Shown piece by piece: positions 21,001 through 63,000 of a stretch of DNA of 64,000 nucleotides. The position numbers are program-made. This DNA comes from Sphyrna mokarran (taxonomy: Eukaryota): NCBI GenBank assembly GCA_024679065.1, contig JAGIQG010000013.1, positions 23,932,001 through 23,996,000 of the forward strand, given 5' to 3'. Numbering within the stretch: the stretch's first letter is position 1; every line of letters begins with the position of its first letter.

Positions 21001-24000
21001 ATAGGTAGAGAAGGGCACTTGTAATGCTAAAATAGCGGCACAGGTTCGTTGGTCCGAAGGGCCTGTTTCCCGTGCTGTACTGTTTGTTCTTTGTTCTTTA
21101 TCTGTTCTAATTTGGTTTAGTGTCAAAAGAATTATAACTGATTCTTTAGGGTTTTTTTCCCCTATCAAAACTGCCATGTATTTTGAGCAATTTCTAATTT
21201 CATGTCACATAAACTTTTTTTTGTGTTGTAGGAGAGGAGCAGGAAAAGCAGAAGAGTGATGATGACACTACTGCTGGTATAGCACTGACATCAATGGCCA
21301 GTGAAGAAGGAGATGGTCTTCATTATGTCATGTATCGTCACTCCCCTGATACCTGTTCAAAGGTTGATACACTTGAAATGAGACTGAGCATGTTGCAAGA
21401 TGGAGCAATCAACTACTCATACGTTACAAGTGCAGAAGATGAGAAATCTGTCTTGAGCACAACATGCTTAATTGGGCAGGGGGATAATGGCGTACAGCAA
21501 AATCTACCCCTGTACAGAAAATCAGTGAATGAAGACAGTAGACGGTACAGTTTGCATAGGACTTCTAAATGCTCGACATCCTTATCACAGCAAGTAGAAA
21601 ATAGATCCATTTCTATCACAGCTATACCTACAGAATCTCAGAATATCACCACTCAACTTAGTTTCAACAGTCCATCCCTGGTCTATAGCACAGTAGAGTG
21701 GGATTATGCACCATCTACGCCAATAAAGGAGAAGTACAATAGTGGCATCAATGATTTAGCAAGCTGTCAAGTCTCTGAGGTCAGTAACATGTCTAAATGT
21801 AGCAAAAACTCGGATGAAGGTTAGAGTCAAAAGGAATGGCTGAGGACAATACAAAGCATAGTCAGTAGCGATCTTTCAGAATAAGTCACAATAATCCAAA
21901 ATAATATCATGACAGCTGCTACTAACTTAGAGGAGCCAGTCTCCTTCTGATAAAGTTAGAATCTGTTTTATCCAAATGTTTTACACTCAAGTTTTTGACT
22001 ACTAAAAGGCCTAATCATTTTCCATATTTGTAATTTTTCTTTCAGATTTTAAAATTGATCAAGATATGTTACAACATGTCTTTTATTCTACAATTATGTT
22101 AGGTTTAGAATGCAGTCCTCACAGGACAGACTCCATGCTGATGGACAGTGTTATTATTTATTGTAGGGGATTGGGTAGGATTCCTGGTTCTCAGTGTAAA
22201 GCTAAAGCAAATCCTAGTGACCGCACATCTTAAACTTGTGAAATATTTAATTATAAACGAGATTGATTGAATGTGAGCTTGCTATAAGGCCCCTACTATC
22301 ACAACCTATTCCATCTCTCGCCTACTCCACTTTTATCAACTGTGCTTAAGAAGTTGATAGTGGCCCTGATGTGGGGATGCTGGCAATGGACCAGGGTGGG
22401 CATAATAAAAAGTCTGACAATACAAGTTTAACCTGGTGTTATCTTTTTGCTATGCTTAAGAAGAGGAAGGATTGCCAGTTCAATGACAATAACTTAGATA
22501 TGGTTTCGAAATTAACATTCACCCCAAATATTTTTGAGGCTCTGTTTGTGATCATAGAATGATAGAAACTTACAGTTTAGAATGAGACCATTCAGCTTAT
22601 CGAGTCTGCACCGAACATAATCCCACCCAGGCCCTACCCCCATATTCGTACATAATTACCCAGTAATCCTTTTAATCTACACATCTCAGGACACGGAGCA
22701 ATTTTTTATTTAGTGTGGCCAATCAACCTAACCCACATATCTTAGGACTGTTTGGAGGAAACCGGAGTATCCGGAGGAAATCCATACAGACATGAAGAGA
22801 ATGTGCAGGGACCTAAGCTGGGAATCAAACCCGGGTCCCTGCACTGTGAAACAGCGGTGCTAACCACTACCTTACTTTTATTCAATAAGATGTTTTGATA
22901 AGAAATATTTTGAATTTTGCACTCTTTATAAGGTGTAATTTTAAGAAGTAATTCACAGTGTTCTTTCGTATACTGATAAATCATGCTCTCTCCCAGTGGT
23001 GGAGTTAGAATTAGTTGGACCCTGTGTTAAGCTTATTTATTAGTCACAAGTAAGGCTGACCTTAACACTGCAATGAAGTTATTGTAAAAACCCTTGAGTT
23101 GCCACACTCCAATGTCTGCTCGGTTACACTGAGGAAGAATTTAGCTTGGTCAATTCACCTAACCAGCACGTCTTTCAAACTATGACAGAAAAGCAGAGCA
23201 CCTGGAAGAAATCAATGCAAATACAGGGAGAACGTGGAAACTCCACACAGACAGTGACCCAAGCTGGGGATTGATCCCAGGTCCCTGGCGCTGTGAGGCA
23301 GCAGTGCTAATCATTATGTTATAGTGTGCTGCAATCCCCTCCCACCACTCCCATAGCTACTACACACTCTAGAGCATTTATTCCTTGTCCATCTCTCAGT
23401 ACGAAGGGAGCAGATTACTAACACATAAACAAATCCAAGACTGAGTAGAACAGCTGCCAAAAATATAGCTCCAGCTTTCTCACACTGATTCCTCTCTTCA
23501 TCCTCTACATTGCTGGCAGGTAGCGAGGTTACTGAAGATGATTTGTATAAACTTTACCACATTAATTAGATCCTCACAATGGACACAATAGTTGAACCCT
23601 GCCAAAATGAAAACATCTAGGACATAGTTTCAATTCTTCAAAAGCCAGATATTTTGCCCGTATCAAAAGTCCCTTGCATTTTTGTCTTAACCTCTGAACA
23701 ATTCAGAAACCCTGTATAGAACCCATCTACACATGGAGAAAAATGAAGGCTAAGTGATAATATAACTCATATTTAAGCCCTAGCCCAAAGTTACAGTGAT
23801 ATTTCAATGAAGAATGTAAAATATAAGATTGATCGAGATGTTTATTTAAATTAGCGCGTGTTGAATACATGAGAAAATTTACCAAGTGAAATAAAATCAA
23901 TGATTTGATTCTGGGCTTCAGTTATATTTAATTCCCCATCTGTTTCAACCTTTCAAATTTGTTGTCCTTTTATTATTAACGTATGGGATATGGGCTTCAT

Positions 24001-60000: not shown

Positions 60001-63000
60001 GCTGACTCACAGCCAGTTTACAAGGCAGCTGCTATTTCGCCTCTCTTTCTCACCCTCCCCTTGTCTCCCCCCCCCCCCAACCCTTTACACCTTCTCTCTC
60101 GCCCTCTCCTGCCTTCACCTCGTTTGTCTCAATCAGATGCCCGTCTGGTTGCTGGGTGGCTAAGGCTGGCACTGCCCTTACCTGCTGTGACTGATGGTGA
60201 CGGTAACAGGCTGTAGTGTAGGCTGCGGCGGCGGCGGCTGCTGGAAAGTACTGGTGCGCTCCATAAGACTGATGATACATAACATCCAGACAACTCATGA
60301 CCGACCCCACTTTCCGACCACTCGCATTTGTGGTGGATGGGCAGAGGGGTGGCGGGGAGGGGTGGGGAGGGGGAAGAGAGACTGGAATGGAGGGGGTGGG
60401 AGATACTGCTTCACTCTTAGAAGGGACTCGTCCCTCGCATCCTCGCTTTGTAAGTCCTCGCTGGAAGGTGGGGTGGGGGGGGGGGGGGGAGAGGCAGAGG
60501 GGGAGAAGAGAGAGTTAAAAAGTTCTGAACATTAAGACAATACAAGCCTCCTCCGCCTGTCCGGTGCCGGGGATTCTTTGTAGAAAATTTTGGGGTCTGA
60601 TTGATGGGAACATCAGCAACTCCGCCTGCCCCACTCCTGATTGGACAAAACCCTGCCCTTTACTATTGGCCAGCACAGCAGCAAGCCCTTCCCACCCGCA
60701 ATACTGAAGCATTTCTCAATATTTAGACAGTTGTTACTTTTTTTTCCCCAACTTTTGCGCACTAGCTATTTTTAAACGGATTTACAACCACACTGGATAA
60801 GCTGCTGGATCAGTTCAACTGATTCTATTCTGTGGGCAGGATTGTGATGTGTTGACTATCTAAAGGGCCAGTGCCTATTCAATAAAGGCCACCAGAACCG
60901 AGTTTCCAAACTGATGCAAGGTGGGCAATTTCCAATGCACGGGCATTAGGGCAATTGAAGCAGATTTTAACAGCCCAAGGTGGCGGTACTGCTCTGAAAG
61001 ACATCTTGCTCGCATAGGACCTCGGCGTCACAACCTTGAGGTTTTGAATCGACAACAGAACATGCGGGAAAATCTCAGCAACTCTGACAGCTTCTGTGGA
61101 GAAAGAAAAGAGCCAACCCTTCCAGTCTGTACGACCTTTCGTCAGGGTCTTTTAAAGTTTAAAACGCTTAAAGTATTATAAAAAAAACGCTTACAGAGTT
61201 CTTCTTCACAAACCGATTGAATAAATAGACACACTACCAATTGATGCCTCATCTTGTTTGAGTTCGTCTGCTTGCAAGTAAACAGCCAGGCGTTCAGCGG
61301 TAATATTCTCACTGAGTTCAGAGAATGTAACAGGCTGGCACTAGTTTAAATGCGTTACCGCAATATTGGAGGTGACATCTTTTGAATGAGATGTTAAATT
61401 CAAGCTTTCCCTTTTCTGGTATCCTACAAACATCTTATGATGCTACTCAAAGAGCAAAGAAGTACTCCTTGATGTTCTAACCCAGATATATATCCCTCAG
61501 GCCATATCAAACCCAGATAATCAGCTTATTGCTGTTGGTGCACACGTTGCCTCTTATTTTTCCTCCGCTACAACACTTCACTTTAAGGGCAGCACAAGTG
61601 GCGCAGTGGTTAACACTGATGCTTCACAGTGCCATATGGAATTTGCATGTTCTCCTTGTCTCTGCATGGGTTTCCTCAGGGTTCTCTGGATTTCTCCTAC
61701 AGTTCAAAGATATGCAGGTTAGGGGGAGTAGCAGGGCATAAACATAGGGCTATGGGTATAAGACCTTTGAAGGGGGATGGATGATCTATTGGAAAGTCGG
61801 TGTAGAATCGATGAAGCAAATGGCCTCCTTCCACATTCTATGATTCAAAGTACTTCATTGGCTCAAACAAGTTCACCAGGATGACCCTTCTTCAGACTGT
61901 CATCTAGACTCAAAACGTTAGCTCTATTTTTTTCTCCATAGTTGCTGGTAAACCTGCTGAGATTTTCCAGCATTTTCTGTTTTTGTTTCAGATTCTAGCA
62001 CCTGAAGTAATTTGCTTTTGTCACTGACTGTTAAGCTTTTGGAACGATTTGAGATCATGAAAGGGATTACAAAAAGGCAAATTCTTCCTCTTTTTTTCTA
62101 TCACTTTGTACACAGCAAGATCCCACTAGGAAATGGTGTAACAGAGCATTTTTTAAAAAGTCATTTTGATTGTTTTTATTTTGATCGTTATTTTTCACAT
62201 TATGATATAAAATCGTTTCTGTTGCACTTAGAGATCAAAGATGAACTTGGTGTAACATCTTACCAAGAGATGGCACTCCCAGCAATGCAGGAGATTATGT
62301 GCTCAATATCAAACCCATAATCTCTCATTCTGAGGCAAGATTGCTGCCACTAAACCAAGATTACATGCACTTCAAGATGCAATAACTGACTTGCACTGTC
62401 TATCAGACAGCTGCAAGCAGACCTCTTCAAGGAGGTTCTCACCTTAAGTAGGATCTGAGCCTCTTGCCAAATAATTCCTGTTGTCATGGAACTGCTTTGG
62501 CAATAAATTCAATCTGTCTGTATTTGCCATGCAGTTCTTCTCTACCACCACTAAAGGTTCCATTTGGAAAATACTTTGTACTAAAAATATAATCTGTCTA
62601 GCTTTCTGAGCACAGAGGGTGTAGGGACAGCACTTAACTCATGATTGTAGCATGGGACCAAGTGTGTTCTGTATAACTGGAGGTCTCTGCTCCTTAACAG
62701 TTGTCCCTTACCATGGAGCCAAGCAACATTGCACAGAGTGCCTTGTGCAGTCAACTCTCTGTTCTTAAAGGCAGGCTTCCCCTCCTAAAATGAAGTGGCA
62801 CTGAAGAATGAGGCTGGAATTTCTTTTAAAAATGGCAGAGAAATATTAGGACAGAAAGAGAGAGAATTTTTGAAAATGGGGTAGCATAGTGGCACAGTGG
62901 TTAGCACTGCTGCCTCACACACCAGGGATCTGGATTCAATCCGTCTGTGTGAAGTTTGCACTTTCTCCTCGTGTCTATGTGGGTTTCCTCCTTGTGCTCT

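Follow-up and report, generated by a model that had tools for sequence, protein, structure and literature searches.

Drugs against lung cancer target, among other proteins, the receptor tyrosine kinase ROS1. From the evolutionary point of view it is a presumed singleton: in the survey by Brunet et al. 2016 (PMC4898815), Ros1 appears among five one-gene subfamilies of receptor tyrosine kinases (RTKs) in jawed vertebrates, elephant shark included, and Alk, Ros1 and Insr are grouped together. In mammals the order of genes is GPRC6A-RFX6-VGLL2-ROS1, as given in 10.1101/2025.11.14.688574, with the vestigial-like gene VGLL2 next to ROS1. Here we consider a stretch of 64,000 nt from the shark Sphyrna mokarran (assembly GCA_024679065.1, contig JAGIQG010000013.1, positions 23,932,001 to 23,996,000), called below the window, in which the last coding exon of a ROS-type kinase gene is found tail to tail with a vestigial-like gene of the VGLL3 type. 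We conclude, with a probability of about 0.78, that this kinase gene, named here ROS-B, is an old sister of human ROS1 that stands tail to tail with VGLL3, originated in the early vertebrate duplications and was lost in amniotes.

Compared with classical ROS1 (clade A in the trees described below), proteins of the ROS-B type (clade B) have the same Pfam set, stretches of fn3 followed by a tyrosine kinase, and the B kinase is closest to solved structures of ROS; in the C-terminal tails of both kinds two ...Y... motifs of the docking type follow each other in the same order, and both genes adjoin a vestigial-like gene. On the other hand, the B tail extends ∼250 residues past the exon boundary, whereas ∼40-100 residues are seen in the A rows, and it has motifs of its own; the neighbour of the B gene is VGLL3, not VGLL2; and the B proteins form a separate, fully supported clade with 34-41% identity to A over ∼2200 columns.

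A ROS-type terminal exon beside VGLL3

The kinase-type exon occupies positions 21232-21824 of the + strand. It follows an acceptor AG at 21230-21231, its first two bases finish a split codon (phase 1), and the frame remains open from 21232 until the TAG at 21822-21824, yielding a translation of 196 residues with two tyrosine motifs, GLHYVM (21315-21332) and GAINYSYV (21402-21425). A sequence-only reading of the window had described a phase-1 terminal exon with these motifs and had assigned it to a ROS-type gene; acceptor, frame and motifs were all located, and the assignment has been borne out by the searches described next.

When the 196-residue tail was compared with proteins of 344-2000 residues, we observed two matches, both to proteins named 'ROS-like', one from Cetorhinus (E-value 2.8e-76, 68% identity) and one from Rhincodon (E-value 4e-60, 57% identity). 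Each of the two proteins has a Pfam tyrosine kinase domain; with such E-values and kinase domains the tail match is far above chance, and the peptide has led to ROS-like kinases rather than to non-kinase proteins. The tail was also aligned to all six tail-holding chondrichthyan proteins, which carry a ROS-type kinase (E-values from 7e-29 to 4e-90). Its similarity to the paddlefish protein P0024 (E-value 6e-4) and to the caecilian protein P0176 (E-value 0.046) was weak, and no alignment was obtained with A-type rows, i.e. classical ROS1 (all E-values ≥1.8). The first tyrosine motif is present in every B tail printed in the alignment (10 B rows, two of which stop before the tail), where it lines up with a ...GLNY... 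motif of A-type proteins. Five of the six chondrichthyan tails retain the second motif, while in Heptranchias its Y is replaced by F; among the A tails, those of mammals, sturgeon and paddlefish have a corresponding motif. On the grounds of acceptor, phase, open reading frame (ORF) and homology, we regard it as confirmed that the exon encodes the C-terminal, putatively docking, tail of a clade B receptor tyrosine kinase of the ROS type.

The rest of the kinase gene lies outside the window. We found no kinase, FN3 or YWTD exons in it: in tblastn searches with the ROS-like proteins of Cetorhinus (P0001) and Rhincodon the terminal exon alone was matched, everything else having E-values >1; scans for kinase signature motifs in all six frames of the window found none, and five long ORFs in 1-21231 produced no Pfam family above cut-off. 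Positions 1-21231 (+ strand), with dispersed repeat copies and no ROS exon detected by tblastn, are likely to be the 3' part of the last ROS-B intron. Since no kinase exon was matched in this region, the intron should be longer than 21.2 kb, and properties of the kinase are deduced from its orthologues.

For this purpose the Cetorhinus protein was searched against proteins of 1456-4155 residues, and the best 120 of 828 matches were listed; the statements of this paragraph on relatives and on their identities refer to this list. Full-length relatives of 2261-2450 residues came from Heterodontus, Chiloscyllium, Heptranchias and Callorhinchus, and partial ones were obtained for Pristiophorus and Mustelus; six cartilaginous fishes besides Sphyrna mokarran have this tail on a protein with a ROS-type kinase. 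Identity to the shark query was 64% for the paddlefish protein P0024, 51% for a second paddlefish protein, P0028, and 47-54% for ROS1 of coelacanth, sturgeon, birds, turtles and mammals. The Pfam family PK_Tyr_Ser-Thr was detected in P0172 with an E-value of 3e-92, and P0001 retains the catalytic motifs VAVK, HRDLAARN and DFG. P0172, P0024 and P0176 have five fn3 stretches each; Ldl_recept_b was seen in P0024 alone, below cut-off (E-value 0.0053). The B-type ectodomains align with those of A-type ROS over ∼1800 columns. Among solved structures the closest to P0001 were those of ROS (462-639 bits), with the next kinase families, ALK (∼298 bits) and IGF1R/INSR (∼277 bits), scoring far lower; given these scores and an ectodomain that differs from those of ALK/LTK and the insulin receptor family, membership of the kinase in ALK/LTK/INSR was ruled out. 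The recent PDB entries 9oyz, 9oz1, 9oz6, 9ozc, 9ozh and 9ozi contain a 2311-residue 'Tyrosine-protein kinase receptor', whose alignment with the shark protein (639 bits) begins in the last FN3 repeats and includes the kinase; this set of full-length ROS-type structures is a possible template for modelling of ROS-B.

The protein, as reconstructed from the orthologues, would be a single-pass receptor with an ectodomain rich in fibronectin-III repeats, an intact kinase and a long C-terminal tail. By homology, the two tyrosine motifs of the tail could serve as phosphotyrosine docking sites after autophosphorylation.

The main tree was built for 20 named ROS proteins, full-length or partial, over 2316 columns. 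The proteins fall into two clades, A and B, each with a value of 100 in the Shimodaira-Hasegawa-like approximate likelihood ratio test (SH-aLRT) and with an inner branch of ∼1.04 changes per column between them. Clade A (10 rows: coelacanth, paddlefish P0028, sturgeon, two turtles, two birds and three mammals) is classical ROS1. Clade B (10 rows) contains eight chondrichthyans, paddlefish P0024 and the caecilian Rhinatrema bivittatum (P0176); the tail-bearing proteins of chondrichthyans are therein apart from all 10 A rows, outside the ROS1 orthology group. The species tree is repeated inside each clade. In a more careful tree of 14 rows, A, B and A+B each received a support of 100/100 (bootstrap/SH-aLRT). 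The same topology was produced by the ectodomain alone (1795 columns, 100/100) and, with weaker support, by the kinase alone (271 columns; 97/96 for B and 52/96 for A). Identity between A and B is 34-41%, in comparison with 49-52% within B (chondrichthyans, paddlefish P0024 and caecilian compared) and 47-59% within A (not counting turtle with ostrich, which at 73% are the closest pair). The two proteins of the paddlefish Polyodon spathula, P0024 and P0028, are encoded on different contigs (of 51,467,788 and 79,736,678 bases) and are 38% identical, a value much too low for a recent duplication of the paddlefish's own. These results support the view that the kinase beside VGLL3 is a member of an old separate clade and is not an orthologue of mammalian ROS1; in the trees its gene falls outside the mammalian ROS1 clade, as the sequence-only reading had anticipated.

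The vestigial-like gene is located on the - strand. It has four coding exons, with AG/GT at all splice sites and with junction phases that agree (0, 1, 1). The coding part of exon 1 (60182-60298) starts with ATG at 60298-60296 and includes 39 codons, followed by a donor GT at 60181-60180; 39 of 39 residues are identical to the start of Mustelus asterias VGLL3. Exon 2 (57753-58005), delineated by its splice sites and by Pfam, encodes the Tondu (TEAD-binding) domain, including DIGAVVDEHF; the Pfam family Vg_Tdu (PF07545) matched with its full profile 1-31 (E-value 1.6e-18; 66.7 bits, with the cut-off at 27). This domain is common to VGLL1, VGLL2 and VGLL3, and marks the family, not the paralogue. 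The motif DIG.VVDEHF, taken to be VGLL3-type, is present in the VGLL3 proteins of tetrapods and sharks that were compared.

Exon 3 (56042-56530), delineated by splice sites and homology, has phase 1 at both ends and encodes a long C-terminal region with a His-rich stretch. Its comparison with proteins of 285-2000 residues (599 candidates) gave 19 matches with E-value ≤1e-3, all 19 of them VGLL3 (17 named so, one pangolin protein named 'hypothetical' and one elephant protein named 'Vestigial like family member 3') and none VGLL2. Eight of the matches are chondrichthyan, with 71-98% identity (98% for the houndshark Mustelus asterias, which places the source shark close to Mustelus, and 90% for the catshark), and eleven are tetrapod, with 46-53% identity over 93-96% of the exon length (E-values from 1e-29 to 8e-41). 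The coding part of exon 4 (47617-47648), preceded by an acceptor AG at 47650-47649, consists of two bases, nine codons (LWYGGSLTG) and TGA at 47619-47617; the C-terminus encoded there equals that of the Scyliorhinus and Stegostoma VGLL3 models. Best matches and the names given to them in the sources, in place of a tree with VGLL1 and VGLL2, support identification of the gene as VGLL3. With tetrapod VGLL3 it has in common the Tondu domain, and its exon phases fit a four-exon gene; however, while skate and tetrapod proteins end in ...KSKE..W[FY], the last exon of the shark gene reads LWYGGSLTG, an end that it shares with the models of catshark and zebra shark, and a last exon of the skate/tetrapod type was not found in the window by pattern search. 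VGLL3 itself is an ordinary TEAD cofactor with a Tondu domain. The extra C-terminal exons of isoform X2 of Mustelus asterias VGLL3 were considered and rejected; they match 51169-51003 and 47650-47585 (- strand) only with a change of frame and an in-frame stop, and this isoform is probably not a conserved protein.

The coding regions of the ROS exon (+ strand) and VGLL3 (- strand) converge, with their stop codons ∼25.8 kb apart. The sequence-only reading had described the neighbour as VGLL3-type and tail to tail with the kinase gene, and both points stand: every exon 3 match is VGLL3, and the two genes run towards each other on opposite strands. An assembly gap of 151 N at 52198-52348, the sole run of N in the window, was checked before all else. 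It is situated inside VGLL3 intron 3 (exon 3 ends at 56042, exon 4 starts at 47648), breaks no exon and has no homology-supported exon at its flanks. To its left are the ROS exon and VGLL3 exon 4, and to its right the first three VGLL3 exons, with correct exon order and strand across it. As VGLL3 exon 4 is on the ROS side, the scaffold join is supported and a false join is unlikely.

Age of the duplication and alternative explanations

If the duplication was younger and took place in the stem of bony vertebrates, the shark gene would be an unduplicated pro-orthologue, B-like because A evolved fast. The 20-row tree has no outgroup and permits a root on the chondrichthyan branch; with such a root no loss of A in sharks is needed, and the best 120 of 828 matches among proteins of 1456-4155 residues included no A-type protein of a shark, which is weak evidence. 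To root the tree we used eight distant relatives without taxon labels, chosen at ≤45% identity and for long single alignments. Still, all eight were placed outside A+B and joined on the A-B branch, dividing it into stems of almost the same length (0.49 and 0.42). Forcing all seven bony-vertebrate rows together made the tree worse by 104 log-likelihood units, and this grouping was rejected in the approximately unbiased (AU) test (p-AU 2e-43; 14 rows, LG+G4 only). Moreover, a copy of the single gene would have had to arrive next to the other VGLL paralogue in the same convergent orientation, whereas duplication of a block accounts for both pairs together. The opposing outgroups have no taxon names, which speaks in favour of the younger date; all in all, we consider it unlikely. 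The data support placing the node of the A/B duplication before the split of cartilaginous and bony vertebrates, as seen with these unlabelled outgroup taxa.

The end of the tail gives ground for another explanation. Two in-frame stops, TAG at 21822 and TAA at 21882-21884, end the tail ∼43 codons early. In the same frame past these stops, a block of 21 codons (21885-21947) closely resembles the extreme C-terminus of the proteins from Cetorhinus, Heterodontus, Chiloscyllium and Rhincodon; the tblastn alignment stays in frame up to 21944, and a double stop is present at 21948-21953, where proteins of other sharks end. From tblastn, translation and the C-termini of the four sharks, positions 21825-21950 (+ strand) appear to be an in-frame remnant of the ancestral tail end. 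Its presence has several possible reasons: the tail may have been recently truncated in this lineage, the block may be kept for some other reason, or splicing may remove something here. One candidate intron, of 66 bases at 21820-21885, that would remove both stops was rejected, since the first downstream AG gives an immediate stop and the tract is poor.

One could suppose from the loss of ∼43 codons kept in four other sharks, the well-conserved last block among them, that Sphyrna mokarran has a decaying copy and that the exon is a relic of a pseudogene or belongs to a truncated gene; also, the model of its nearest relative, Mustelus asterias P0025, ends inside the kinase domain. Yet 196 codons are open and are 57-68% identical to those of other sharks, with both tyrosine motifs intact, and the effect of a stop within the last exon would be limited to a shorter disordered tail. 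As to the Mustelus protein, its branch among those of sharks is short (0.072). Decay is, in our judgement, rather improbable and, as it concerns one species, would leave the clade unaffected.

A further explanation would be that the gene is a plain shark orthologue of ROS1, with the two clades being an artefact of rate or composition and with VGLL3 brought next to it by local rearrangement. The names are in line with that, as NCBI calls the Heterodontus and caecilian proteins 'ROS', and so is the count of a single Ros1 in jawed vertebrates in the RTK survey (PMC4898815). Nevertheless, the paddlefish has a gene in each clade, the two only 38% identical; the species tree is repeated in each clade, ectodomain and kinase taken separately show the same split, and the tails differ in kind, the long B tails sharing further motifs and the A rows having no match to the exon of the window. 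We find this explanation very improbable. Least credible of all is an artificial adjacency, with the gap at 52198-52348 joining unrelated pieces: though the ROS exon and VGLL3 exons 1-3 are on different sides of the gap, whose length is only an estimate and whose flanks may not be continuous, VGLL3 exon 4 (47648-47617) is on its left in the right order and strand with the C-terminus of Scyliorhinus and Stegostoma, and in two of two species with both proteins among the listed matches, Mustelus asterias and Heptranchias perlo, ROS-like and VGLL3 are on contigs of equal size, which we read as the same chromosome.

Returning to ROS-B as an old sister of ROS1 next to VGLL3, we note a number of points that weigh against it. 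Besides the early stops, the window contains a single exon of the kinase gene, its last, and an intact gene in Sphyrna mokarran is a presumption. Orthology of VGLL3 rests on best matches and names rather than on a tree. Adjacency of a B gene to VGLL3 is seen in Sphyrna mokarran, with a shared chromosome in two other sharks; for paddlefish and caecilian it would be an expectation. The group rejected by the AU test was named after the tree had been seen. Should the outgroup proteins be fast-evolving vertebrate sequences, the root may be a long-branch effect, and the outgroup may have been pulled toward the long A-B branch. Finally, B-type proteins of skate, ray and catshark are missing among the best 120 of 828 matches though VGLL3 was found in these fishes; absences from this list carry little weight.

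The history that we propose for ROS-B would begin with an ancestral ROS-VGLL pair. When the genome was duplicated early in vertebrate evolution, the pair would have been copied together, which would have produced ROS-A (ROS1) with VGLL2 and ROS-B with VGLL3. A single block duplication would explain both ROS-VGLL arrangements, as human ROS1 and VGLL2 are likewise tail to tail, and fits the rooted tree; the paired neighbours are one per side, VGLL3 here and VGLL2 in mammals, and the comparison is limited to that one pair. ROS-B would then have persisted in cartilaginous fishes and, outside them, in at least one ray-finned fish that is not a teleost (the paddlefish, with both genes) and at least one amphibian (the caecilian). 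None of the 10 B rows is from an amniote and all seven amniote rows are in A, from which we read ROS-B as lost in amniotes.

The sequence-only reading had proposed that the pair predates the vertebrate genome duplications, and this step rests on the synteny along with the root obtained from outgroup proteins without taxon labels. Its further suggestion, that sharks kept a ROS paralogue lost by mammals, is sustained as to the separate clade and the lack of amniote B rows, not as to restriction to sharks, as paddlefish and caecilian members exist. Similarly, of a second ROS ohnologue in sharks the lineage distinct from ROS1 stands, while for two ROS genes in sharks we found no evidence: among the best 120 of 828 matches only the VGLL3-adjacent kind was seen.

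Other features of the window

Between the converging coding regions there is a spacer of ∼25.7 kb (21951-47616; any 3' untranslated regions included), which contains a decayed fragment of a long interspersed nuclear element (LINE) as well as dispersed repeats. The LINE remnant is at 34434-35318 (- strand), with RVT_1 at 34434-34802 (E-value 5.6e-5, below the Pfam cut-off) and a match of the ALKBH8_N type at 34938-35318; it was all that Pfam detected in ten long ORFs of the window. No Rfam families were found in the window. The G+C content is 35-44% in 4-kb windows.

We observed a dispersed repeat of ∼200-290 bases at ∼27 places in introns and spacer, with copies that are 68-87% alike and often form inverted pairs; examples are 1217-1408, 1749-2038, 33242-34020, 39251-39549, 49689-49984, 53322-53617 and 62880-63067. 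A blastn search with one 741-base repeat query gave 53 pieces, the query itself included. The repeat copies explain many of the look-alike ORFs in the window.

Implications for the ROS subfamily

Gene models of ROS-B are public at NCBI under the names 'ROS' and 'ROS-like', while their paralogy appears to be undescribed; in the literature searched, where subscription journals were largely missing, we found no description of a vertebrate ROS paralogue. ROS-B is of the same kind as the duplication products lost in mammals and kept in fishes or other lineages that are treated in PMC4898815, and it would enlarge a presumed singleton subfamily.

A second old ROS lineage alters the one-gene count of the ROS subfamily. 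It also means that 'ROS' annotations in shark, chimaera and caecilian designate paralogues, not orthologues, of the human gene, and that ROS and VGLL provide a clean example of a gene pair copied as a block. The interest of these results is solid for the fields of kinase evolution and vertebrate genome duplication, and modest beyond them.

One could further speculate, at somewhat less than even odds, that the losses were reciprocal: cartilaginous fishes would have ROS-B only and amniotes ROS-A only, the gene that databases call 'ROS' in sharks would correspond to a receptor other than the human oncogene ROS1, and the ancestor of jawed vertebrates would have had two genes, each beside its own vestigial-like gene, with a few lineages (paddlefish, perhaps some amphibians) still running both. 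In species like the paddlefish the two receptors could be compared for expression, ligand and signalling. If the losses were indeed reciprocal, ROS would be a two-member RTK subfamily and would offer a natural system for asking what the role of the lost receptor was.

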